Part shown: in pieces, positions 1,482 to 26,859 of the stretch
Layout: each line of letters begins with the position of its first letter
Position numbering within the stretch: position 1 is the stretch's first letter
Sequence record: MF996376
Direction: 5' to 3' (one strand)
DNA length: 49,579 nucleotides
Source: Escherichia phage SRT8
Made by a program: the position numbers and the translations under genes
The notes under the pieces: generated by a model
Told to the model about the DNA's origin: nothing
Databases searched by the model: none
The model's input: only the letters and a program-made list of their open reading frames with translations

Positions 1482-3299
1482 ATGGCTTTATACAGACAAG
1501 GCGAAGCGTCAATGACGGCAGAAGGACAAGTAACGGGCGTCGGTACTCAATGGCGCGAACCGTTATCCCTGATCCGCAAAGGCGCAACTATAGTTTTCCT
1601 TACTACCCCATTGAAGCTGGCGGTAATCAACACGATCGATAGCGATACGGAAATGACCGCCATTACGACGGACGGCGAAGCGGTGGCGCAATCCAAATAT
1701 GTGATCCTGTTGAATGACTCGTTAACCGTTGACGGCATGGCGCAAGACGTAGCCGAAACGCTTCGTTACTACCAGAGCAAAGAAACGGAAATAGAGGAAG
1801 CAATTGAATTCTTCAAAAACTTTGACCTTAAAACATTACAGGATCTTGTTGCTCGCGCGGAAGCCGCCGCTCAATCGACAAGTGCGGATCGTGCTGCCAC
1901 TGAGCAATTGAAGAATGAAACCAATCAGTTCAGGGCTGGGGCGTTAAATGCTCGTAATGAAGCGGAGGACGCTCGCGACGCCGCTGATATTGCAAGATCT
2001 GGCGCTGAGACTGCAAAGTCTGGCGCTGATACAGCAAAGGCTGGCGCTGAAACTGCGCGTGATGAAGCTCGCCAATGGGCGCAACAGGTACAGCCTGAAA
2101 ATCTGCTGCATAAAGATCAAAACCTTAATGATCTTGCAAACAAAGACCTTGCAAGGAATAATTTGGGCATTGGTGAAACTGACATTCCTGTTTTTAGAGG
2201 AATAAGCCTAACAGAAAAAAACTCTGCAAACTCTGGAATTCTTTATTTAATAAACAAAAGTCCAGAAGATGTACAGCTTTCATACTCAAGAATTTACAAC
2301 GAAATTCAAGGTGGATTAGCAAAATCAACAATACAAGTTACTAGGGAAGGTGGCGACACAAACTATTATCAGTTTGATGAAAGCGGTAACGCGCTGAATT
2401 ACAACTCAATAACAATCGGTAGGGGTATTGGTAATGCTCTTGGCAGTAATTCTCTTGTTATTGGCGATACTGACACAGGTTTGAAATGGGGCAGTGATGG
2501 TGTTTTGCAAGTTTATTGCAATGGTATGAATGTTGCAGCTTATGAAGCGCAAAATATGCACCTTAACGGACTTTTAAATATATGGCCTGTTGATAATAAC
2601 GCTAGCGGCATTAGAGTTTCAGGATCTAGATTTGGGGGCAGCAATGCGTTAATCGGTGGTCAAGTAGCCCCTGGAAGTTTTGAAGTATGGCGAGAACGCG
2701 CTTGTGGTATGCTTGTTGAATTACCTGTTGATGATGCGGCAGTAAACGTCTTTAAGGTTGTTCGATGGGGTGGAGATTGGGCTGCTGGTCTTGATGTTGC
2801 CAGATATAGCGCTGGAGGTTGCGAAGCTCATTTTAATGTAAGGGGCGCTGTTTATGGGTTTAACGATTCTGGTTATGCGTCTGCTGTGCAATGGGTTAAC
2901 ACTTCCGATATTCGCCTGAAAGCAAACCTAAAAGAGATTGAAAGCGCTAAAGAAAAAGTGAAATCAATAAAAGGTTACACTTATTTTAAGCGCAACAATC
3001 TTGATGAAGATGAATATTCTTTCTATTCGGAGGAGGCTGGTGTAATAGCTCAAGACGTGCAAACTGTTTTACCGGAAGCGGTTTACAAGATTTCAGATTC
3101 AGAATATTTAGGTGTTAGCTATGGCGGTGTTACTGCTCTTTTGGTTAACGCGATCAATGAAATGATTGATGATTCAGATAAGCAGAATAAAACTATTCAG
3201 GCTCAACAGGAGGAAATTAAAGAGTTGAAAAACGAGATCGCAGAAATGAAAGCCGCAATTGCGGAAATGCAAGCGCTTATTGTCCAAACTGCTAAGTAA
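1482..3299 (+). CDS. Tail fiber protein with C-terminal intramolecular chaperone (peptidase S74-like) domain
   Basis: C-terminal SDIRLKANLKEIE...EEIKELKNEI region typical of auto-cleaving chaperone domains; Ala/Asp-rich repeats DARDAADIARSGAETAKSGADTAKAGAETARDEA; ATG at 1482 has a GGAGGA RBS (track start 1467 is TTG). Confidence 0.8.
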   Translation: MALYRQGEASMTAEGQVTGVGTQWREPLSLIRKGATIVFLTTPLKLAVINTIDSDTEMTAITTDGEAVAQSKYVILLNDSLTVDGMAQDVAETLRYYQSKETEIEEAIEFFKNFDLKTLQDLVARAEAAAQSTSADRAATEQLKNETNQFRAGALNARNEAEDARDAADIARSGAETAKSGADTAKAGAETARDEARQWAQQVQPENLLHKDQNLNDLANKDLARNNLGIGETDIPVFRGISLTEKNSANSGILYLINKSPEDVQLSYSRIYNEIQGGLAKSTIQVTREGGDTNYYQFDESGNALNYNSITIGRGIGNALGSNSLVIGDTDTGLKWGSDGVLQVYCNGMNVAAYEAQNMHLNGLLNIWPVDNNASGIRVSGSRFGGSNALIGGQVAPGSFEVWRERACGMLVELPVDDAAVNVFKVVRWGGDWAAGLDVARYSAGGCEAHFNVRGAVYGFNDSGYASAVQWVNTSDIRLKANLKEIESAKEKVKSIKGYTYFKRNNLDEDEYSFYSEEAGVIAQDVQTVLPEAVYKISDSEYLGVSYGGVTALLVNAINEMIDDSDKQNKTIQAQQEEIKELKNEIAEMKAAIAEMQALIVQTAK

Positions 3300-13446: not shown

Positions 13447-16152
13447 TTAGCCTCCTGTTTTTTCCATAATGTAGGTGTAAGCTTTGCCACCTTGTGAAAA
13501 CGATTCGTTAATCATTTCGTTGCAGATCATACGAATGCCCTGCTCAAGCCCTTTTGGATCGTTGCCGTTATTCACATCGACTCGCATCCCGCTAACGTCG
13601 ATATAGTTCCCAGCGCCAGCGCCACCGCTTGAAAGCGTTAACCCTGCTCCGCGCGAAGCATTGCCAACTGAACCGCCGTTCGCATAACCGCGCATTAGTC
13701 GGTTTAGGTTGCCAACCCCGATCCGGCTTGTCGCCTCCTTCGTGAACACGAATTCACCGCCGTGAACTACGCCTTTCGGTTCGTACTTGCCGCCGTTCCC
13801 GGTATAACCGCCATTAGCAAACCCGCCCGCAAAACTCCACGTAGAGCCGCCCATCATACCAGAAATCGAATTGAAGATTACCATCTTAGTAATCATCTGG
13901 ATAATCTGGCTAATGATGCTCTTAGCGAAATCTGCGAAGTTCGCTTCACCGGTCATGAGGAATTCCGCCATCATATCAGACATTCCCGACAGCGCGTTCG
14001 AAGCAATGTTCCCTACATTATCATACATGTTAGTTGCTTCTTCGCCGTAGGTGGCAAATGCTGATTGCGCCCCAGCCAGCCAATCGCCGCGTTTTTCGTC
14101 TTCGGCTGCGTAGTATTTTTCTTGCGCTTCCTGCATACGCTTGAACGTGTCGTCCTCAAGACTTCCGCCCTTCGCTAACCAATCCGCTTGCATCTTCTGG
14201 CGTTCCGCTTCACGTTGTGCCGCAAGTGCGCCCATGCTTCGCGTATCGTTTAGCGTCTTCGTTGCCTGTTCCATTTGCAACACGAATTTAACGGAATCTT
14301 GATTCAACTGGTTTAGCCGTTCCTGCTGCGCAATCTGATCGCCTAGTTCGGCTTTCTGTTGTGCGCGGGCTAGTACCTGTTTCTGTTCCAGTAATAACGC
14401 TTGCTCCGCATTTGTTAACTTGCGTGTGGATTGCGCTTCCTCCAATACCTGAATCTGTCCTTCGACAGCCCATAGTGCTTTACGCTGTTGCGAAATGCGA
14501 TCGTTAATGCTGGCGTGTTTTTGCAGTGTCACTAACTGCGCCTGAAGCACGTAAAGCTCTTTGTCGAGTTGCTCGGTAGGTGCTCGCGTGATACCGCCAG
14601 AACCTTTCTTGCCGCCCTTCGTGCCTTTCTTCTTCTCCGCCTCCTTCGCCTGTTTCACTTCGTCTTCGCGAATCTTGATTAACTTTTGAGCGTTGGCGAT
14701 TGCTTCTTTATTGCCGGAAGCCGCGATCGCGTTGGCGTTCTTTCTCGCGTCGGCTAATGCCTTCTCAGCCCCGGCGACACGATCCGCCGCTAAATATTCT
14801 TTGTTAATCAAATCGACGGTTTTCGCTACATGCTTGTTACCTTCAATTCGCGCCGTGTTAACTTGCTGATTAAGCGTTTTAGCCTGTTCCAGCACTTTTA
14901 CAATCGGGTCAACTGCGCCGCCCAGCGCGACAGACTGTTTCCCTTCGTTCGCCCCGGTGTAATAGTTTTTCACCTCTTCCGCCGCATCGCTCCACGCGTC
15001 TTTGATTTCCAGAACCTTTAATCGGTGCTGTTCAATGTCAACGTTTAGCGCCGTGAAATCGCCCGATTTCTTGTACTGTTCGACACGCTGTCGCGCTTCG
15101 TCATAGCTGATCCCGACGTCTAACATTTTCTGTAACGACTCTTCCGCGCCGTCTTTCGTCGAAATGAAAGCTTTGATTACTTCGTCTGCTGATTGGTCGG
15201 CGGCTTTCGCGATCCCCATAATGTTCAAGGACAACCGATCAGCGTAATCGCCAGTAATCCCAAGTTGTGTATTGACTGCGGATTGAGTTTCCTTGATCTC
15301 GTTGCGGGTACTGACAACCTTATAAATCAGTGCTCCCAGCGCCCCAACCGTAACGCCCAATCCGACGTTAAGCGGATTCAGGAAAGACAACAGAACTTTG
15401 AACGTATTACCCAGCCCGCCGAAGCTGTCTTTAATCTGTCCGCCCTGCTGGATTGCTACCAACCAAACAGGCATACCGGAAGCAAGCGACGTTACAACGT
15501 CCGTAATCTGCGCCGGAAGCATTCGCATTGCTTGCGCATATTGCCCGGCAGAAACGCCAGCCAGTTTTAAACCCTTCGCCTGATTATTCAACTGCGCGAT
15601 AAATGGCGCGGCCTGTTCGCTTACGCCTAATTGCGCGGCCTTCAGTTCTAAAACTTCTTGCGCCGTCTTGCCAGCGAATAAGGCTTGCTGTTCTAAGCTC
15701 TTGATGAAGTTTTGCCCGGCCTTCGTTGCCACCTCCTTCTGGCGTGATGCTTCCGCCGCCGCTCGACCTTCAGCCGTTAACGCTTGCTGATTCTTGCGCA
15801 ATGCAACCTCTTGCGATTCCAGAACTTCGCCAAGCCGGAAGAATTCGTCGTCCGGTACGACGCCTTTTTTCCAAAGTGCGTCTAACTGCTTCGCCGTTTC
15901 GCGTAAGCGGTTCATGCTCTTGACTGTGGGATCGATAGCCGCTACAACGTTGGAGTATTCCTTCGCCTGTTTCGACAGTTCACGCGCGTGATCCTTTGCC
16001 TTCTGTTTCGCAACTTCCGTTTGATTTAGAAATTCATGGGTCGAGTCCGCCGCGCCGTCGTTCGCCTTCGCAAATTCACGAAGAGACTTTACAGCCCGAT
16101 CGACTTGCGATACGTCAACACCTAGCGACAATCCCGCGTATTGTTCCGCCAT
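13447..16152 (-). CDS. Tail tape measure protein
   Basis: 901 aa, long Ala/Gln/Glu/Lys-rich coiled-coil stretches, Gly-rich C-terminus; directly after the G/GT chaperone genes. Confidence 0.85.
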   Translation of the reverse strand: MAEQYAGLSLGVDVSQVDRAVKSLREFAKANDGAADSTHEFLNQTEVAKQKAKDHARELSKQAKEYSNVVAAIDPTVKSMNRLRETAKQLDALWKKGVVPDDEFFRLGEVLESQEVALRKNQQALTAEGRAAAEASRQKEVATKAGQNFIKSLEQQALFAGKTAQEVLELKAAQLGVSEQAAPFIAQLNNQAKGLKLAGVSAGQYAQAMRMLPAQITDVVTSLASGMPVWLVAIQQGGQIKDSFGGLGNTFKVLLSFLNPLNVGLGVTVGALGALIYKVVSTRNEIKETQSAVNTQLGITGDYADRLSLNIMGIAKAADQSADEVIKAFISTKDGAEESLQKMLDVGISYDEARQRVEQYKKSGDFTALNVDIEQHRLKVLEIKDAWSDAAEEVKNYYTGANEGKQSVALGGAVDPIVKVLEQAKTLNQQVNTARIEGNKHVAKTVDLINKEYLAADRVAGAEKALADARKNANAIAASGNKEAIANAQKLIKIREDEVKQAKEAEKKKGTKGGKKGSGGITRAPTEQLDKELYVLQAQLVTLQKHASINDRISQQRKALWAVEGQIQVLEEAQSTRKLTNAEQALLLEQKQVLARAQQKAELGDQIAQQERLNQLNQDSVKFVLQMEQATKTLNDTRSMGALAAQREAERQKMQADWLAKGGSLEDDTFKRMQEAQEKYYAAEDEKRGDWLAGAQSAFATYGEEATNMYDNVGNIASNALSGMSDMMAEFLMTGEANFADFAKSIISQIIQMITKMVIFNSISGMMGGSTWSFAGGFANGGYTGNGGKYEPKGVVHGGEFVFTKEATSRIGVGNLNRLMRGYANGGSVGNASRGAGLTLSSGGAGAGNYIDVSGMRVDVNNGNDPKGLEQGIRMICNEMINESFSQGGKAYTYIMEKTGG

Positions 16153-19249: not shown

Positions 19250-19271
19250 AAAAAGGGCGCATATAGCGCCC
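19250..19271 (-). terminator. Hairpin (GGGCGC-TATAT-GCGCCC) plus T-run on the minus strand
   Basis: Read directly. Confidence 0.55.
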
Positions 19272-19280
19272 GGACTCGGT

Positions 19281-19586
19281 TTAGAATTCGCCGCCGTCTT
19301 CAAGTTCTTTTTGTGACTTGCCAGCGGTAGGATCTGGCTTACGTCGCGCTTCCATTCGTTCGCGGATTTCGTCGGTCGCGTCGCGGTCGTCTTTTATTTC
19401 TAACGCGCCTTGTCCGAAAAGGTATTCAATGCCGGAAGTCTTCAGAAGTTCGGCGGATACTTCCATTTCATCGCCCGGCATAAGCTTTTCGCCGTCAATG
19501 AAAATCAGCGCTACACCAGCATTAATGATTGCCACTTTGCCGGATTCGGTTACTTCGGATTTTGCTTTTTTGGTTTCTTTAGCCAT
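19281..19586 (-). CDS. Hypothetical acidic protein encoded directly after the major capsid gene
   Basis: ORF with RBS between two terminator hairpins. Confidence 0.4.
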   Translation of the reverse strand: MAKETKKAKSEVTESGKVAIINAGVALIFIDGEKLMPGDEMEVSAELLKTSGIEYLFGQGALEIKDDRDATDEIRERMEARRKPDPTAGKSQKELEDGGEF

Positions 19587-19605: not shown

Positions 19606-19636
19606 TAAAAAAGGGACTCAAATTAATGAGTCCCTA
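19606..19636 (-). terminator. Intrinsic terminator after the major capsid gene (AGGGACTCA-TTAATT-TGAGTCCCT plus T-run)
   Basis: Strong hairpin and T5 on the minus strand. Confidence 0.65.
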
Positions 19637-19647
19637 TATTAAGGCAA

Positions 19648-20625
19648 TTACTCGGTGACTGCAAGCCCGGTAATCAGGACAATCGTCAACGGACGGTAGA
19701 TTGTCAGGCCAGTACATTTAGAAGTGCAAGGCACTTTGAAATGCAGGTCTTTCGGCTGTGCTGGCAGCATGTTAAACGCTTCCGGGATCTCGATAGACAT
19801 ATTCATCGGATCGTATTCGTAAACCAATGCGCCTTTTGTGCCGGAGCCGTCGATATCTTCCAACTCTGCGATCGCTTCGATGGTGATATTACCGTTTTGC
19901 TTCTGGAAATATTCAAGATAGCTTTCAGTAGTATCAGTCATGCGAACGGTCAGAACTTTACGCATAGACGGCGGAATCAGAATGTGGGTCGCGCGGTGTG
20001 CGCCCATAGTCAGCGTTTCGATGGTTTCGATTGCTGCGGTCAATTCTTCTTCTGCGTTTTCCGGCAGTTTAGTAGTAACGCCGCCAGTGGTAGAAGTCCA
20101 GCCCTTAGACGTAATCTTCGTAATGTTCGGATGATTGAACACGCTTACGATTTTGTGCGGAGCGGAGCCTTTGAAGACCAGACGGTTTACAAGCTGATCA
20201 TGCGCAAGCTGTGCCGCGTTCGCTTTGCGATTCGACAGAGATTTGCCAGTCGCTTGACCTGCTTTGATTTCGTCAATAGAAATCAGATACGCATTACCCA
20301 GGCGGAACACTTTACCGAATTCGCTTGATGCCATTGCATCTACCAGCGGCAAATCATCGGTATAATCGGCGATAATTTGCGCGATACCGACTTTATCAAA
20401 AGTCTGATATTCGAAGGTTTTATCAACTGGGGAAAGGTCAGACGTAACCGGGAAAACGCGAAGTGCGGAGCCAGCCGGGTAATCTTTTTCGTAAGACTGC
20501 GACTTCAGCTTATTAAGTTCCTGCGCCGTCCAAATGCCTAGCGTGTCGGCGTCCGCTTTAGTGCCGCGCATTTGCAGGTGATTAGCAACGACGGAAGCTT
20601 CGAATTCATCATATTTTTTAGCCAT
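19648..20625 (-). CDS. Major capsid protein
   Basis: 325 aa, very strong RBS AAGAGGAAA, flanked by terminators, position after scaffold/decoration genes. Confidence 0.65.
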   Translation of the reverse strand: MAKKYDEFEASVVANHLQMRGTKADADTLGIWTAQELNKLKSQSYEKDYPAGSALRVFPVTSDLSPVDKTFEYQTFDKVGIAQIIADYTDDLPLVDAMASSEFGKVFRLGNAYLISIDEIKAGQATGKSLSNRKANAAQLAHDQLVNRLVFKGSAPHKIVSVFNHPNITKITSKGWTSTTGGVTTKLPENAEEELTAAIETIETLTMGAHRATHILIPPSMRKVLTVRMTDTTESYLEYFQKQNGNITIEAIAELEDIDGSGTKGALVYEYDPMNMSIEIPEAFNMLPAQPKDLHFKVPCTSKCTGLTIYRPLTIVLITGLAVTE

Positions 20626-20676
20626 GTTTTCATTTCCTCTTATTGGTGAAAAGCCGTTAATTGATAACGGCTTTAT

Positions 20677-20714: not shown

Positions 20715-21497
20715 TTATGGTTCGGGCGGCGCTTCCGTGACGGTAATCGGGCGCGTGATCGTGTACTTGCCGGAGTCGTTCGCCGTCCATACGATGTTAG
20801 TAGTGCCAGCCGCTACGCCAGTGATTAAACCCGTATCCTGATCTACCGTCGCGACGCCTTCGTCTTCCGAAGAGAATTTACCAGTTCGATCCGGCGCGGC
20901 TGGAGTGATAGCGATTAACCTTGCCTGAACGGTTGCCCCCACTTCGATCGAATTCGGGTTAATGTTCATTCCGCCACTTTGCACAACCAAAAACGCGTTA
21001 ATACCCTGAACTAATTGCACCTCAAAGATTGCAACGTTAGGCTTGATAATCACTTTACCGCCAGTGAATCGCCAGTTAACCAGCGCCCCGCCAGAAGTGC
21101 CGACAGTGCCGTTTGACTGAATTCGAACGCGCTGTCCGAAAGTTGGCGTAATATCCGTGTTGTTACCGTAAACCCACACGCGACCATGCGTTACGACGTT
21201 AATCACATCGCCTACGTTATACATCGCGTAACCGTCCGCCGATTCATGCGGCGCATAGTGATGCGTCATTGCGATCCCGTATGGCACATTTTGAGTAGAA
21301 ATCAGGCTTTGACGAACGATTTTATGCCCGCCCGGATCTACTGACTCAACCCACACGGCGCAACCTGAAAAGACGTGTTCGCCGCCGATGCCTTCACCCT
21401 GCCCGCCCACAACACAAGCGCCGTCGATGTTATAGTCCGACGTGTCGGAAAGACAGCCGGGAAAAGCTTTTAGAATGACGTTTCCATAATCTGACAT
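20715..21497 (-). CDS. Capsid decoration-like protein with C-terminal bacterial Ig-like (Big_2-type) domain
   Basis: C-terminal ATVQARLIAITPAAP...VTEAPPEP region resembles Ig-like domains; N-terminal half is paralogous to ORF 21560-22036. Confidence 0.5.
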   Translation of the reverse strand: MSDYGNVILKAFPGCLSDTSDYNIDGACVVGGQGEGIGGEHVFSGCAVWVESVDPGGHKIVRQSLISTQNVPYGIAMTHHYAPHESADGYAMYNVGDVINVVTHGRVWVYGNNTDITPTFGQRVRIQSNGTVGTSGGALVNWRFTGGKVIIKPNVAIFEVQLVQGINAFLVVQSGGMNINPNSIEVGATVQARLIAITPAAPDRTGKFSSEDEGVATVDQDTGLITGVAAGTTNIVWTANDSGKYTITRPITVTEAPPEP

Positions 21498-21514
21498 ATT
21501 TTATTACCTCCAAT

Positions 21515-21546
21515 AAAAAAGGGACTATCCAAAAGGATAGCCCCCA
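21515..21546 (-). terminator. Hairpin (GGGGCTATCC-TTTT-GGATAGTCCC) plus T6 on the minus strand
   Basis: Read directly. Confidence 0.6.
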
Positions 21547-21559
21547 TATTAACGGTTAA

Positions 21560-22036
21560 TTACAGTTGCATCAACTGAATTTCTACCAGCTTCAGATCTT
21601 GATAAGTGGTGAAGCCGCCCGCGTAAGTCCACGTAGTTTCAATCGCGCCGTCTGCTTTCTGCTGTCCGTCAACGTCGAATTTAACAGGAGTGCCGAACGC
21701 CGGGGCGGTGGAGTCTTTAGAGATAACCCAAACGCGACCGGAAGTCATAACGTTTAGACCGCCGCCAGCTTCGTAATACATCTGGCCGTTTTTGCCTTTA
21801 GTCTGGAAGTGTGAACGAATCGCGATACCGTAAGGAACGCCCGCCGCCGACATTGGCTTCATAACTTTGTGACCATCAACCGCTTGAACGCTGTCAATCT
21901 GTACCGCGACGCCAACGAGGATATCAACGTCACCATTCAGGACACACGCGCCGTCAATGTTATATCGGGAGGTGTCCGCAACCATACCCGGAAGCGCGAT
22001 CGCCATATCTTTCTGATAGCTTGCTGCAATTGCCAT
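21560..22036 (-). CDS. Capsid-associated protein, paralog of the N-terminal domain of ORF 20715-21497
   Basis: Shared motifs YNIDGACV, VPYGIA, GRVWV between the two proteins. Confidence 0.5.
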   Translation of the reverse strand: MAIAASYQKDMAIALPGMVADTSRYNIDGACVLNGDVDILVGVAVQIDSVQAVDGHKVMKPMSAAGVPYGIAIRSHFQTKGKNGQMYYEAGGGLNVMTSGRVWVISKDSTAPAFGTPVKFDVDGQQKADGAIETTWTYAGGFTTYQDLKLVEIQLMQL

Positions 22037-22049
22037 AATTTAAATCTCC

Positions 22050-23156
22050 TTACTTGTTAAGTTTATTCAGGCGGGAATTCGGAGTCACTTCGGCTTCGTC
22101 TTCTTTCTTGCCCGGTTCGCTTGCTGCGTCGCCTTTGATGCTTTGACGCTGTGACGCCATATTATCACAATCTTTCGCGAAGTCGAAGGCGTTGTCGATG
22201 TATGCGTCAGATTTCGCGGAAACATCCTTCCCGGTAACAGCTTTCAGGAAGGCAACTTTGATCGCTTTAGCGTCCATACCGTCACACTTCACACCAGCTT
22301 CGGAAGCGGTAGCAATCAGCGCGGTAAGTTCGGCGGCGTCGGCTTTGTGCTTTTCGACTGCTTCAGTAATCAGCGCCGGAATGCCGTCTACTTTAGTTTT
22401 CAGTAAATCGCGTTCCGCTTCCAGACCGTCGGCCTTGCCCTGAATAGTTGCCACTTCACCGTTAAGCTTTTCGATGTGCGCCGCTACACTTTCCGGCACT
22501 TCCACTTCTACGGAGTCGATTTTAATTTTCTTCATTACGTGATCCTCTTTGTTTGAATTAACGTCGTAATCATACGGGAATTCTTGTTCGCTATCAAGGT
22601 TTAATTTAGCGATTCCCGCACGGCCTTTGAATACCATAGCAACATGATTCACGCGGATTTTTGTCTGTACGGCGTCGAACTTAACCCAGCCTTTCGGGAT
22701 TACTTCGTCTTCTTTCATATCCTCTTCGAAGATATATTCGCCCGTTTCGTTGGAACCCCAACCCGGTTTTTCGATATCTTCGGACGTGTACCCGACAGAC
22801 AGTTCCGCCGCCATTTTGCGCTTGGCCTTCTCGATCGCGCGTTGGCTGTAAATCGACATAGGCACTTCGACGCCGACGCCGTTCGGGATACCGTCGCCAG
22901 CGCATGAACCTACGACAACCTTTTCCGCGTTCTCAGGCGTTACGGTTACGTGACCGACCGTTACAGGCTTGCCCGCATACGTCGCCAGCGATTCAGGATC
23001 GAACACTTCTGACGCCGGGCGGAATTCTACGCGATCGCCGAATGGCGTTTTATAAGTCTGTGCGCCGATACGGGCGACAACCGGGCGATCGACTAAAAAG
23101 CCGTGTTCGTCAAAGTGAGCTTTGATCTTGACGCTATCGAATCTTTGCTTTGCCAT
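22050..23156 (-). CDS. Putative capsid scaffolding / prohead core protein
   Basis: 368 aa with a coiled-coil, Ala/Lys/Glu-rich C-terminal half; lies between the minor head protein and decoration genes. Confidence 0.45.
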   Translation of the reverse strand: MAKQRFDSVKIKAHFDEHGFLVDRPVVARIGAQTYKTPFGDRVEFRPASEVFDPESLATYAGKPVTVGHVTVTPENAEKVVVGSCAGDGIPNGVGVEVPMSIYSQRAIEKAKRKMAAELSVGYTSEDIEKPGWGSNETGEYIFEEDMKEDEVIPKGWVKFDAVQTKIRVNHVAMVFKGRAGIAKLNLDSEQEFPYDYDVNSNKEDHVMKKIKIDSVEVEVPESVAAHIEKLNGEVATIQGKADGLEAERDLLKTKVDGIPALITEAVEKHKADAAELTALIATASEAGVKCDGMDAKAIKVAFLKAVTGKDVSAKSDAYIDNAFDFAKDCDNMASQRQSIKGDAASEPGKKEDEAEVTPNSRLNKLNK

Positions 23157-23159
23157 TAA

Positions 23160-23924
23160 TTAATCTCCTATCTGATTGAAATCTGGAACAACCCAGCAAC
23201 GGCAACCGTATTCTTCGCCGGGGAATATGTGATTACTGTTTACCGGGATGCGCTTACCCTCCCATTTTACGTGTTTTTCACGTTCGCGTAAATCCATCAT
23301 TCCGCGCCAGAAGTAGTGGGTAACTTGTGCGTCCTTCAGGCGTTGACGCATCATTCGGCTGTTCCATGTAGTCACGATCCCGGATGCCCGATTACGCGCC
23401 CACGAAGAGTAAACCTTATAACGCTGATTGGTTTCTTCATAAACCCTTTCGGCTTCGTAGCCGTTCGCCGCCGCGTCGCGTAGCTTCCCGGTAAAGTCGG
23501 TAATAATGTTCGCCGCGAATTTGCGTAATGATGTTTTCGTCTGCGCTTCCCATAGATCGTACTGCGGCGCGTACCAGCTTTCTCCCATATTAGCACCAAT
23601 CAGGACAAGCAACATGACGGCCTGATTTTTTGAACCTCCAGCACTCTTTGCGATCTTAATCCACTGTTTCGCGTTGAACTTATAGATCGTGAACGCCAGC
23701 GCCGGAAGTGCCGCGAACATTGATTGCAACAGGTCTTCGGCGTAGTCAAGCAAGCTTCGCTCTACCTGCTCGATCTGGCCTTCGTCCGCATCCCATTTCA
23801 TAGGATTTAAACTCTCCTGCATACGGGCGACAATCGCGCCCGTAAATTGCTCCATAGAGCGACTTAATTGTCGCTCGCTGGATTCAGGAAAGCGCCATGT
23901 TTTAGCGATTCCGTTAATCTTCAT
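23160..23924 (-). CDS. Minor head protein (head morphogenesis, SPP1 gp7-like)
   Basis: Immediately downstream of the portal gene, overlapping its end. Confidence 0.5.
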   Translation of the reverse strand: MKINGIAKTWRFPESSERQLSRSMEQFTGAIVARMQESLNPMKWDADEGQIEQVERSLLDYAEDLLQSMFAALPALAFTIYKFNAKQWIKIAKSAGGSKNQAVMLLVLIGANMGESWYAPQYDLWEAQTKTSLRKFAANIITDFTGKLRDAAANGYEAERVYEETNQRYKVYSSWARNRASGIVTTWNSRMMRQRLKDAQVTHYFWRGMMDLREREKHVKWEGKRIPVNSNHIFPGEEYGCRCWVVPDFNQIGD

Positions 23925-25230
23925 TGTCTCCGCCTTCTTCGTTTTCGTGAATTACTTCACCGACTCCCGGTTCCTTTTCGGCCTTCTGTTGCTCTTCGGT
24001 GCGCTTCTTCAGTTCCGTGTGATTCAGGTCTTTAAGCTTAAACATCGGCGCGATAGATTGCAACGTGTCGCGGGCTTCTTCTAAATCAATCATCTGATCT
24101 TCCAGTGCGCCCCGGATAGACTCAACGTGATTTTTCGTAGTCTCGGACGCTTCCTTCTCTGAAGGCATGGAAAGCGGTTCGAACTCGACAGACCATTCCT
24201 GTTCGTGAATTACGAACGGCAAAAGGAATTCTAAGATCGGGCGGTAATGCTCTTCGCGCTGTCGGTCAATCAGCTTGTAAAACGTTTCTAGCGCCGTGTT
24301 CTGGCTTGCGCTAACGCCGCCGACGTTCTTGTTTTTCAAGATGATTTCATGAATGCCGGACAGTGACACAACACGATCGAACTTATTTTGCAGGAATTCA
24401 GAAACGCCGTTAACGTCAGAATTCAATACTTCGTATTCTTCGTCGTTCGCGTCAATACCGATCGCCTTACCTACGCCGGAATTATCATCCACCTGCGCCA
24501 GCCGCAAACGCGCCGCGTAAGCTGCTTCGTCGTCGTCGCACATTTCCGCAAGCCCTTTCACCTTCCATACTGCTTGTTGTTTACGGCGTAGAAGTTGCGT
24601 TGCCAGTTCTTCGCAATATTCGTAATCGTAAATCGCTTCAATCAGTGACTTGTTAAGGAATGGTGCGCCCCATCCGTTGTTACGCTTGCGCTGTTGTGGC
24701 GGAAGTCGTTCACCGTCTAGGATCTTGATTCGCGTATAGTGAACCTGATACTGCGTAAGACCATCGCCCGGACTAATTTCATAAAGGACAGGTTCGCCGT
24801 AACGGACGTTCCGCGCGTTGGTTTCTTTCTTCGCGATAGCAATTTGATCGCGATCGTAAACCCTGATTCCTTCCAGTACGCCGCCTTCTTTCGCTGGCGA
24901 AGTAAGCTTGCGCCCGTCGTTGATAATAGCCACGATCCCGGAACCGCCATAAAGACGACGCCACGCTAACGCATCAACGATTAGACCTTCGATTTCCAGA
25001 TCGTCCCACACTGACCGGAACGCCGCTTCATCCTTAACGCCGGAAACTTTAAAGCCGGGCGATACCATTTCTTCTGGAACAACGTCGATAATACGTCGCG
25101 CTAATCCGTTGTTTTCGTACATCCACCCCAGCCCGTAAGACTGCGCCCCGGTAACGTAAAACGGCTTCGGCGCGTTGTCGCCTCCGTTGTTGAAAATCTC
25201 GTTATACCCATCGTGCTTTACAATTTTCAT
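23914..25230 (-). CDS. Portal protein
   Basis: 438 aa directly after the large terminase gene; acidic C-terminus. Confidence 0.75.
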   Translation of the reverse strand: MKIVKHDGYNEIFNNGGDNAPKPFYVTGAQSYGLGWMYENNGLARRIIDVVPEEMVSPGFKVSGVKDEAAFRSVWDDLEIEGLIVDALAWRRLYGGSGIVAIINDGRKLTSPAKEGGVLEGIRVYDRDQIAIAKKETNARNVRYGEPVLYEISPGDGLTQYQVHYTRIKILDGERLPPQQRKRNNGWGAPFLNKSLIEAIYDYEYCEELATQLLRRKQQAVWKVKGLAEMCDDDEAAYAARLRLAQVDDNSGVGKAIGIDANDEEYEVLNSDVNGVSEFLQNKFDRVVSLSGIHEIILKNKNVGGVSASQNTALETFYKLIDRQREEHYRPILEFLLPFVIHEQEWSVEFEPLSMPSEKEASETTKNHVESIRGALEDQMIDLEEARDTLQSIAPMFKLKDLNHTELKKRTEEQQKAEKEPGVGEVIHENEEGGDNED

Positions 25231-25287: not shown

Positions 25288-26859
25288 TTATTTACGCTTT
25301 ACCATTCCGGCTAAACGCTTCATTCGCTCGACAGGATCGTCGATTGTCAGAAGTTCGATGTTCGCCGCATCCATGAAGTTATCGACAATATCGTCGTGCG
25401 GGTGCGTATCGTCGTATGTGAACGCGCTATGCTCGGCGATGATTTCGGACAGCATAGGGTGTTCTTCCGGTAGCACCACACGCCCGGCTTTGATTACTGG
25501 CTGCGCATCCATCGCGCGAGTAACTTTATCTTTGTTACGCTGCAACGGCGTGATAGCAACAGGAGTTTTCTTCTCTAAGTTCTGGATCAAGCCCGTACCG
25601 CTGGCCTTATCTTCGACGTAAATCTTTCTCAGTACCCCCATTGATTTATTATGCCTCCACGCCGCGTTAACGAACGCTTTAAACTGCGTTTCCATTTCCG
25701 GCGCTTTCCATTTGCCGCGAACGCCGTCGATAAAGTACACCTTATCGTTTTTCTTACCCCATAAACAGAAGACAGTGTAGTCGTTTAGCTCGCCTGTTTT
25801 CTGCGCGGTATCGGCGGTAATGAAGCGGTAATCGAACTTGCCCGGTTCTGGTTCGTCGGCTTCTAAGCTGTTGCCGTAGTACGTCCACCACTCGGAATTA
25901 AACACCGCGCCGCCCAGCGCGATCGGACGCTGTTGATACTGCGAATCAAAGGTGTATTGGTCGGCCTCACGTAGCGCCATTAAGTCGTGAACGGTTTCCT
26001 TTTCAGGCCAAAAGCTATAATGCTTAACGCCGTCGATTAGCACGTATTCAGACGAAAGCACATCCTTTTCGAAGTGCGGTTGTAACCATTCAGGAAGTGA
26101 TTTCCCGTATTCCTCAGTTACTAGCGCCGGAATTGAAATCTGATCGAATTCTATCCCCATCCCGCCGTTCATCATGAACCATGTAGAATCCTGTGCGTGT
26201 AAGCGCTGCTGTATGGCGATAATCGGCGTTTCGTTGTGCATTCGTCGGCTTCGGATTGTGTTCTTTAAAAGCGTATGTGTGCGCTCTCGTTTTACCTTAG
26301 AAAACATATCGTCCGGCTTGTCGATATCGTCAAGCATTACCATACCGGAAAAGCCAGGAACCATATAACCGCCACGCGAACCAGTAATGCGACCGCCCGC
26401 CGCCGCTGAAATAAGCTCAAACCAGACCTTTCCCGCATTGTTTAGCACCTGCATTTCTTCATCTTTCGACGTGCCGAACGCGCAAGGCCATAGCTCTTGG
26501 AATTCCGGCGAAGAAATGATTTCGCGGACTCGCTTACTGTTACGCTTTACAAGGCTGTCGGCGAATGACACATTCAAGTTTCTGACCTTCTTCAGCTTCA
26601 GCATTGCATAAACTGGCAAGTGGATCGAAAAGACTTCCGTTTTCCCCGAACCCGGAGTCACGTTAAAGATCGTGTTACCGCGTCGCCCGGCGATAATCTC
26701 TTCGACTTCGTGGCACAAGTAAAGGTGATGCCAGTTAGGTAAAAATTGCTGTGCCTGTATCAACTGGAACCAGATCCGAATCATCTTTTCGAAGCTGGCT
26801 TCCGACATTTTCTTGATCGCAAGCTTTTGTGTTGCGTCCAGTTCTTCCCAAATTAACAT
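25288..26859 (-). CDS. Terminase large subunit
   Basis: 523 aa; N-terminal ATPase with GSGKTE P-loop-like motif and C-terminal nuclease-like half; position before portal. Confidence 0.8.
   Translation of the reverse strand: MLIWEELDATQKLAIKKMSEASFEKMIRIWFQLIQAQQFLPNWHHLYLCHEVEEIIAGRRGNTIFNVTPGSGKTEVFSIHLPVYAMLKLKKVRNLNVSFADSLVKRNSKRVREIISSPEFQELWPCAFGTSKDEEMQVLNNAGKVWFELISAAAGGRITGSRGGYMVPGFSGMVMLDDIDKPDDMFSKVKRERTHTLLKNTIRSRRMHNETPIIAIQQRLHAQDSTWFMMNGGMGIEFDQISIPALVTEEYGKSLPEWLQPHFEKDVLSSEYVLIDGVKHYSFWPEKETVHDLMALREADQYTFDSQYQQRPIALGGAVFNSEWWTYYGNSLEADEPEPGKFDYRFITADTAQKTGELNDYTVFCLWGKKNDKVYFIDGVRGKWKAPEMETQFKAFVNAAWRHNKSMGVLRKIYVEDKASGTGLIQNLEKKTPVAITPLQRNKDKVTRAMDAQPVIKAGRVVLPEEHPMLSEIIAEHSAFTYDDTHPHDDIVDNFMDAANIELLTIDDPVERMKRLAGMVKRK

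Follow-up and report, generated by a model that had tools for sequence, protein, structure and literature searches.

In the head of phage T1, which is built on a T=7 lattice with 415 capsid subunits, the three-fold and quasi-three-fold sites are occupied by trimers of two cement proteins with a beta-tulip fold, gp49 and gp48, arranged as 80 gp49 homotrimers and 60 heterotrimers in which gp48 and gp49 stand in a ratio of 1:2 (PMC11945409). The N-terminal arm of gp49 passes under the shell, unlike lambda gpD, and reaches the inner capsid surface, whereas gp48 sits on the outside only (PMC11945409). The C-terminus of gp48 is flexible and protrudes from the head, and a role in adsorption has been suggested for it; its Ig domain is too flexible to be resolved and has no modelled contact with the capsid (PMC11945409). 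The fold of the lambda gpD/TW1 type has been called analogous to that of the T1 cement proteins, and a fold analogy to the herpesvirus triplex has also been noted (PMC11945409).

Three deposited structures bear on this system, namely 9KZJ, the capsid of T1, and 9KMG and 9KMH, the capsid and the portal vertex of the T1-like phage FCWL1. Among the vertices of each hexon in a T=7 lattice, two adjoin a penton, one is a strict three-fold vertex and the other three are quasi-three-fold vertices where only hexons meet. Because in the published T1 figure a hexon is ringed by four homotrimers and two heterotrimers (PMC11945409), this geometry and simple arithmetic place the heterotrimers at the 60 penton-hexon-hexon sites. 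The chain counts, with one gp48 in the asymmetric unit of 9KZJ and five copies of gp29 in the portal-vertex model 9KMH, are consistent with such a vertex-adjacent placement. The equivalent FCWL1 proteins (9KMG, 9KMH) are reportedly the subject of a 2025 paper by Cai et al. in Structure (33:663), which PMC13033339 cites.

Related solutions are found in more distant viruses. Lambda gpD and TW1 gp56 are likewise trimeric beta-tulip clamps at the three-fold sites of an HK97-fold capsid, but they have no sequence similarity to the SRT8 pair described below and form homotrimers only. Judged by family names and fold matches, the myophages E217, Pam3 and XM1 have a single cement protein, represented by the Pfam families PF22758 Phage_cement (E217 gp24/Pam3 gp6) and PF23982 (XM1 gp53), whereas SRT8 has a pair of specialised paralogs, and in one of these the cement domain is joined to an Ig domain. 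The herpesvirus triplex consists of one Tri1 and two Tri2, which are related subunits, at local three-fold positions. It shares the 1:2 heterotrimer logic of T1-type cement, but it has no detectable homology to it, fills all sites and is essential for assembly. Ig-like domains are likewise displayed on the head by T4 Hoc and T5 pb10, where they have been linked to surface adherence and are thought to adhere weakly; these proteins are anchored differently, as monomers at hexamer centres rather than through a cement trimer at three-fold sites.

The gene pair analysed here lies in Escherichia phage SRT8 (record MF996376), of which the whole stretch of 49,579 nucleotides forms the window. SRT8 is a T1-like phage (Drexlerviridae, Tunavirinae, Sertoctavirus). 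Its head region is 98.3% identical to that of Citrobacter phage IME-JL8 and 96% identical to that of Escherichia phage BrunoManser (Drexlerviridae, Tunavirinae, Sertoctavirus), and apart from this region, too, the window is typical of T1-like genomes. Both ORFs occur on the minus strand exactly where the initial annotation had placed them, within a standard head module whose genes all lie on the same strand:

25288-26859, minus strand: large terminase
23914-25230, minus strand: portal
23160-23924, minus strand: Mu-F-like head morphogenesis protein
22050-23156, minus strand: prohead protease/scaffold (DUF2213), the upstream neighbour of the pair (Pfam DUF2213, E=8e-25; PHROG 530 head maturation protease, E=1.7e-104)
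21560-22036, minus strand: ORF158, 158 aa, A-type cement (decoration) protein, ortholog of T1 gp49
20715-21497, minus strand: ORF260, 260 aa, equivalent in position to T1 gene 48
19648-20625, minus strand: major capsid protein of the HK97 fold family (Pfam PF09950 Major_capside, E=1.5e-57; PHROG 264 major head protein)
19281-19586, minus strand: DUF7444 protein, a small gene just downstream of the capsid gene

The tandem is situated between the prohead protease and major capsid genes, as are T1 genes 49 and 48. In the T1 genome, protease gene 50 is followed by gene 49 (158 aa), a terminator marked in the annotation, gene 48 (255 aa) and the capsid protein gene 47. SRT8 has the same order, as have BrunoManser, IME347 and others, and it belongs to the same family as T1 (Drexlerviridae, Tunavirinae). 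Both ORFs begin with ATG, and Shine-Dalgarno sequences (GGAGG and AGGAG) are located 7-8 nt 5' of the starts of ORF260 and ORF158. The DUF7444 gene is flanked by two more strong terminator-like hairpins (19255-19271 and 19612-19635, minus strand), which match the terminator-rich layout annotated in T1. Some T1-like genomes have been deposited as 'Campylobacter phage' (20 records, for example A127) and 'Streptococcus phage MBBL140'; it is likely that the host was misassigned in these cases or that T1-like coliphages had contaminated the laboratory material.

ORF158 scores well within PF22758 (E=1.8e-29, 103.1 bits against a gathering threshold of 27 bits). A phmmer search of PDB sequences aligns it with the 158-aa chain of 9KZJ, 9KMG and 9KMH, which is labelled 'decoration protein / cement protein II' (E=5e-68). 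It is 68% identical to T1 gp49 and 89% identical to IME347 gp36. In alignments it retains the long conserved N-terminal arm of the gp49 type (MAxIxASYQxDMAIALPGMV), and its own arm, MAIAASYQKDMAIALPGMV, matches that of T1 gp49. The AlphaFold2 model built from the family alignment has a pLDDT of 87.3 and resembles the 9kmg and 9kzj chains in Foldseek (TM 0.88-0.93). The predicted models of both ORFs match Pam3 8hdt_G and XM1 7kmx_a at a TM of 0.6, and weak or distant fold matches include TW1 5wk1_K and the base of the phi29 gp8.5 head fibre.

ORF260 is composed of two parts:

21003-21497, minus strand: B-type cement domain of the T1 gp48 type, ORF260 residues 1-165 (Pfam PF22758)
20736-20993, minus strand: C-terminal Big_2 Ig-like domain, ORF260 residues about 169-254 (Pfam Big_2, AlphaFold2, Foldseek)

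The N-terminal part belongs to PF22758 (residues 4-162, E=6.4e-23, 81.9 bits against the same 27-bit threshold), and both ORFs also score above the threshold of PF23982. Among PDB sequences, the cement domain matches 9kzj_H, which is T1 gp48, at E=5.6e-27, and over its full length ORF260 is matched at about 1e-26 by two chains, the 255-aa 'BIG2 domain-containing protein' in 9KZJ and 'decoration protein gp29' in 9KMH. The view of the initial annotation that the two products are capsid-associated is thus borne out by Pfam membership and by homology to chains seen in cryo-EM capsids of T1 (9KZJ) and FCWL1 (9KMG, 9KMH). The AlphaFold2 model of ORF260, again from the family alignment, has a pLDDT of 80.8, and in Foldseek its N-terminal domain matches the T1 and FCWL1 chains with a TMt of 0.78-0.87 and an rmsd of 1.8-3.9 A. 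The C-terminal domain, which the initial annotation had assigned to the Big_2 type, is recognised as such by Pfam (PF02368, residues 177-246, E=5.9e-11, 42.6 bits against a cut-off of 22.8 bits). It is all-beta in the model and matches the Big_2 domain 7quz (rmsd 1.3-1.4 A over 76 columns) as well as the C-terminal Ig domain of lambda gpV (2l04). With the Ig domain of T1 gp48 it shares 42% identity (E=2e-11).

T1 gp48 and ORF260 have the same architecture, a cement domain with a short N-terminus followed by Big_2, and their predicted folds superpose, but their cement domains are only about 39% identical, and ORF260 carries loop insertions at residues 31-44, 55-56, 66-67 and 84-93. With every other cement protein, whether of the A or the B type, the ORF260 cement domain shares only about 35-43% identity; its BLAST scores are 60 bits to T1 gp48, 84-98 bits to A-type proteins and 84-106 bits to various A and B proteins. 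When strict residues diagnostic of A versus B were sought in the alignment, only two columns qualified, both within the first 20 residues. The assignment of ORF260 to the B type therefore rests on its position, its short gp48-type N-terminus (MSDYGN...), the B-type features and motifs that are qualitatively visible in the cement-domain alignment, and the Ig domain. Judged by these sequence features, the SRT8 pair has the hallmarks of the T1 system, with tandem genes, an arm on one product, a short N-terminus and Big_2 on the other, and a terminator-like hairpin between them, except that the ORF260 cement domain is not measurably nearer to gp48 than to A-type proteins.

The initial annotation had also described ORF158 and the N-terminal half of ORF260 as paralogs with shared motifs, and had proposed pairwise alignment and structure prediction as checks. 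In BLASTP, residues 11-164 of ORF260 align with residues 14-157 of ORF158 (55/155 identities or 35%, 54% positives, E=6e-27), and YNIDGACV, VPYGIA and GRVWV are present in both. Structure prediction gives both proteins the same fold as the T1 and FCWL1 chains, and unrelated folds were not seen. Between the two genes at the nucleotide level, nothing significant was found, the best match being 23 nt, and the duplication is therefore old.

Taken with the structures of T1 and FCWL1, these data make it very probable that SRT8, a T1-like siphophage, has its two cement (decoration) proteins in ORF158 and ORF260, which are orthologous to T1 gp49 and gp48 by position and architecture and would work as these do. 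Because ORF158 has the long gp49-type arm and ORF260 the short gp48-type N-terminus, homology to T1 points to ORF158 as the general cement subunit and to ORF260 as the vertex-adjacent one. By analogy, ORF158 would form beta-tulip trimers that clamp the three-fold and quasi-three-fold junctions of a T=7 capsid, 80 of them homotrimers, and at the 60 junctions beside the five-fold vertices one ORF158 would be replaced by ORF260 to give a 2:1 heterotrimer. The cement domain would anchor ORF260, and the Big_2 Ig-like domain would project on a flexible linker, so that five Ig domains would surround each vertex and 60 would decorate the head. The need for ORF158 and ORF260 would then be 360:60, or 6:1.

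The spacers on either side of ORF260 contain elements that may serve this ratio:

21510-21545, minus strand: intrinsic-terminator-like hairpin with T-run in the 62-nt ORF158-ORF260 spacer, with an 11-bp GC-rich stem and a 4-nt loop
20675-20702, minus strand: sigma-70 promoter-like element from a promoter scan, TTGACG, 16-nt spacer and TG-extended TATCAT (TGcTATCAT), 10/12 matches with TG
20651-20673, minus strand: 9-bp hairpin found by folding, directly after the promoter-like element and upstream of the major capsid gene

The RNA of the ORF158-ORF260 spacer folds with -25.2 kcal/mol (z=-4.5), and its hairpin was also found by a terminator scan. A terminator is annotated at the equivalent place in T1 (14235-14267) and in Stevie. 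All 11 Drexlerviridae phages examined have the hairpin, with stems that differ in sequence; both partners have changed in 8 of its 11 pairs, the paired cells amount to 84%, none of 500 shuffles reaches the observed value, and slid controls are clearly worse. This hairpin is a candidate attenuator that may set the A:B ratio, since a conserved leaky terminator would lower ORF260 relative to ORF158, plausibly serving the need for roughly 6:1. The promoter-like element is almost invariant in nine Drexlerviridae phages, whereas the flanking coding DNA is only 70-79% identical. It is plausibly a promoter which, with its 5' stem-loop, would restore high expression of the capsid protein after ORF260.

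The A/B pair occurs in Tunavirinae and Tempevirinae. In a neighbour-joining tree of the cement domain, the A genes group with the single-copy genes and the B genes form longer, separate branches; SRT8 A and B are never sisters, the deep nodes being weak (32-71%), and ORF260 is placed among the B genes, likewise with weak deep support. A recent duplication was rejected because the two genes have no nucleotide similarity and are unpaired in the tree. The tandem duplication proposed in the initial annotation accordingly stands as paralogy and fails as a recent event in SRT8, given a pair common to both subfamilies and a deep split in the tree. The further statement that the longer copy had 'gained' its Ig domain is only loosely right: most B-type genes (T1, swan01, KMB46, PHB07) have a homologous Ig domain and some (Stevie, tonn, IME347) lack it, so that the domain dates from early in the B lineage and was later lost or swapped in places. 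No donor for it was found among the SRT8 tail tube, gpJ-like and fibre proteins, which contain no other Big_2 domain. The genus Webervirus (Klebsiella and Enterobacter phages; loci L011 and L013) has a single A-like cement gene of 172 aa and no B paralog, and presumably all 140 sites of these phages are occupied by homotrimers. In Rogunavirus Rogue1, a 481-aa collagen-repeat protein lacking a cement domain is encoded between the cement and capsid genes (L010:2347-3792; PF01391, 3e-27; PHROG 5073 'tail fiber'), and it may be a head fibre or the product of a misplaced tail-fibre gene.

The ORF260 allele has a narrow distribution. At more than 95% identity it is found only in IME-JL8 and BrunoManser, the other 840 phage records being below 60%, so that, unlike T1 gp48, it is confined to three known phages. 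Among 1.84 billion representative proteins it has one close cluster only, and the next full-length relatives are 36-43% identical; the word-indexed protein search returned few full-length homologs, and the exhaustive search was swamped by multi-Big_2 proteins and left about 20 useful family members. SRT8 A is sister to IME347 A (100% bootstrap), but their B genes do not group. Nucleotide similarity between SRT8 and IME347 (about 79%) breaks off at 21412, where codon 29 ends shortly beyond YNIDGACV, and is found again from 20717, the ORF260 stop codon; other relatives show the same limits. Even A-type genes of other phages share 85-90% identity with the 40-nt stretch of ORF260 that encodes DTSxYNIDGAC. 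With such sharp similarity boundaries, ORF260 appears to be a divergent allele that behaves as a replaced cassette. Its cement domain is nearest to B proteins of the PHB07/K50evo type and its Ig domain to the T1/swan01 type, and these split affinities suggest that ORF260 is a mosaic at the level of domains.

Several other readings of the pair have to be weighed against the T1-type model. That the similarity of ORF158 and ORF260 is a compositional coincidence, or that one of them is a non-functional relic, deserves almost no credence: their products align with the E-value given above, both have good ribosome-binding sites and confident predicted folds, and both are intact in every close relative, the Pfam and PDB-sequence matches being already sufficient to refute the idea. 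A more serious alternative is that ORF260 is part of the capsid but does not enter 2:1 heterotrimers with ORF158, forming instead homotrimers of its own, as in a head fibre of the phi29 gp8.5 type, or binding sub-stoichiometrically. The proposal of 2:1 heterotrimers in SRT8 would extend the T1 arrangement across the large distance between ORF260 and gp48, and the step is a long one because ORF260 scores T1 gp48 no better than it scores A-type proteins. The great divergence of the cement domain from that of gp48, the apparent exchange of the B allele without its A partner in the comparison with IME347, and the presence of the phi29 gp8.5 fibre base among the distant fold matches all favour separate homotrimers. 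Nevertheless, the A/B pair, its gene order and the intergenic terminator are conserved throughout the family, B is found together with A in both solved relatives, and a minority subunit fits a terminator-attenuated gene, so that homotrimers or sub-stoichiometric binding appear improbable. A search for virion proteomics of the closest phage, IME-JL8, led to a paper that reports SDS-PAGE only, with unassigned gel bands.

Under the favoured model of 2:1 heterotrimers, the Ig-like domain would be an accessory surface module, most likely one that binds carbohydrates of cell or environmental surfaces weakly and reversibly. Its occurrence among B genes is variable: it is absent from Stevie, tonn and IME347, the last of which has a Pro/Glu-rich tail instead, it is single in T1, KMB46 and SRT8, and it is double in swan01. 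The PHB07 B gene carries a divergent Ig domain that is missed by Pfam and is homologous to that of T1 gp48 at E=3e-6; the idea that the C-terminus of the PHB07/K50evo type is a different domain was rejected on this ground. Whatever the number of Ig modules (none, one or two), the cement domain is always kept, a pattern that would be expected of an accessory domain for display. The Ig domain thus appears to be old in the B lineage and to have been repeatedly lost or changed, and a dispensable, outward accessory function fits better than a structural one. It is nevertheless possible, if rather unlikely, that the domain is not adhesive, and that it shields or braces the vertex, aids folding or assembly of the heterotrimer, or is near-neutral baggage. 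The relatives without it are viable phages, no ligand is known for it even in T1, and the T1 domain is too flexible to be resolved and makes no modelled contact with the capsid. The same flexibility and the outward position speak against bracing, however, while variation in number and sequence is typical of modules that face the environment, and the Ig-like domains of T4 Hoc and T5 pb10 are tied to surface adherence. Homology to Hoc was seen only as a marginal match at the level of the Ig domain (Hoc-like 7x30_P, E=0.25), and the ORF260 domain would resemble the Hoc-like adherence proteins of the BAM model by functional analogy only. In IME347, the Ig-less B gene (164 aa) ends at an in-frame TAG within its Pro/Glu-rich tail (L003, about 2616-2678, minus strand). 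Beyond this TAG another 20 PE-rich codons follow in the same frame, up to a TAA at the point where the gene stops in other phages; they could be what a deletion has left behind or an extension made by read-through.

Much of the arrangement inferred for SRT8 is already known, as it has been described structurally since 2025 for T1 and FCWL1, and near-identical genes are present in GenBank. What is new is the conserved bracket of terminator-like and promoter-like elements and the apparent cassette-like exchange of the B gene. It is conceivable, although we would not call it probable, that the B gene is a swappable 'vertex display cassette' placed between an attenuating terminator and a promoter with a 5' hairpin, and that these devices set A, B and capsid protein to about 6:1:7 and, together with the DTSxYNIDGAC stretch, anchor homologous exchange independently of A. 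If this is true, the cassette would be a small, previously undescribed unit of stoichiometry and exchange in the heads of Drexlerviridae.

The practical value of the comparison lies in better annotation. The nearest GenBank records label the ORF260 homologs 'hypothetical protein', and misleading names found on homologs of the cement genes include 'putative zonula occludens toxin', 'SbcC-like scaffolding protein', 'beta-galactosidase', 'putative preneck appendage protein' and 'capsid fiber protein'. The variable and dispensable C-terminus of B would also be a natural site for the engineering of capsid display in T1-like phages. For the biology of these phages, the pair would illustrate how quasi-equivalence is broken by a duplicated cement protein, the extra copy of which displays an Ig domain around each vertex.
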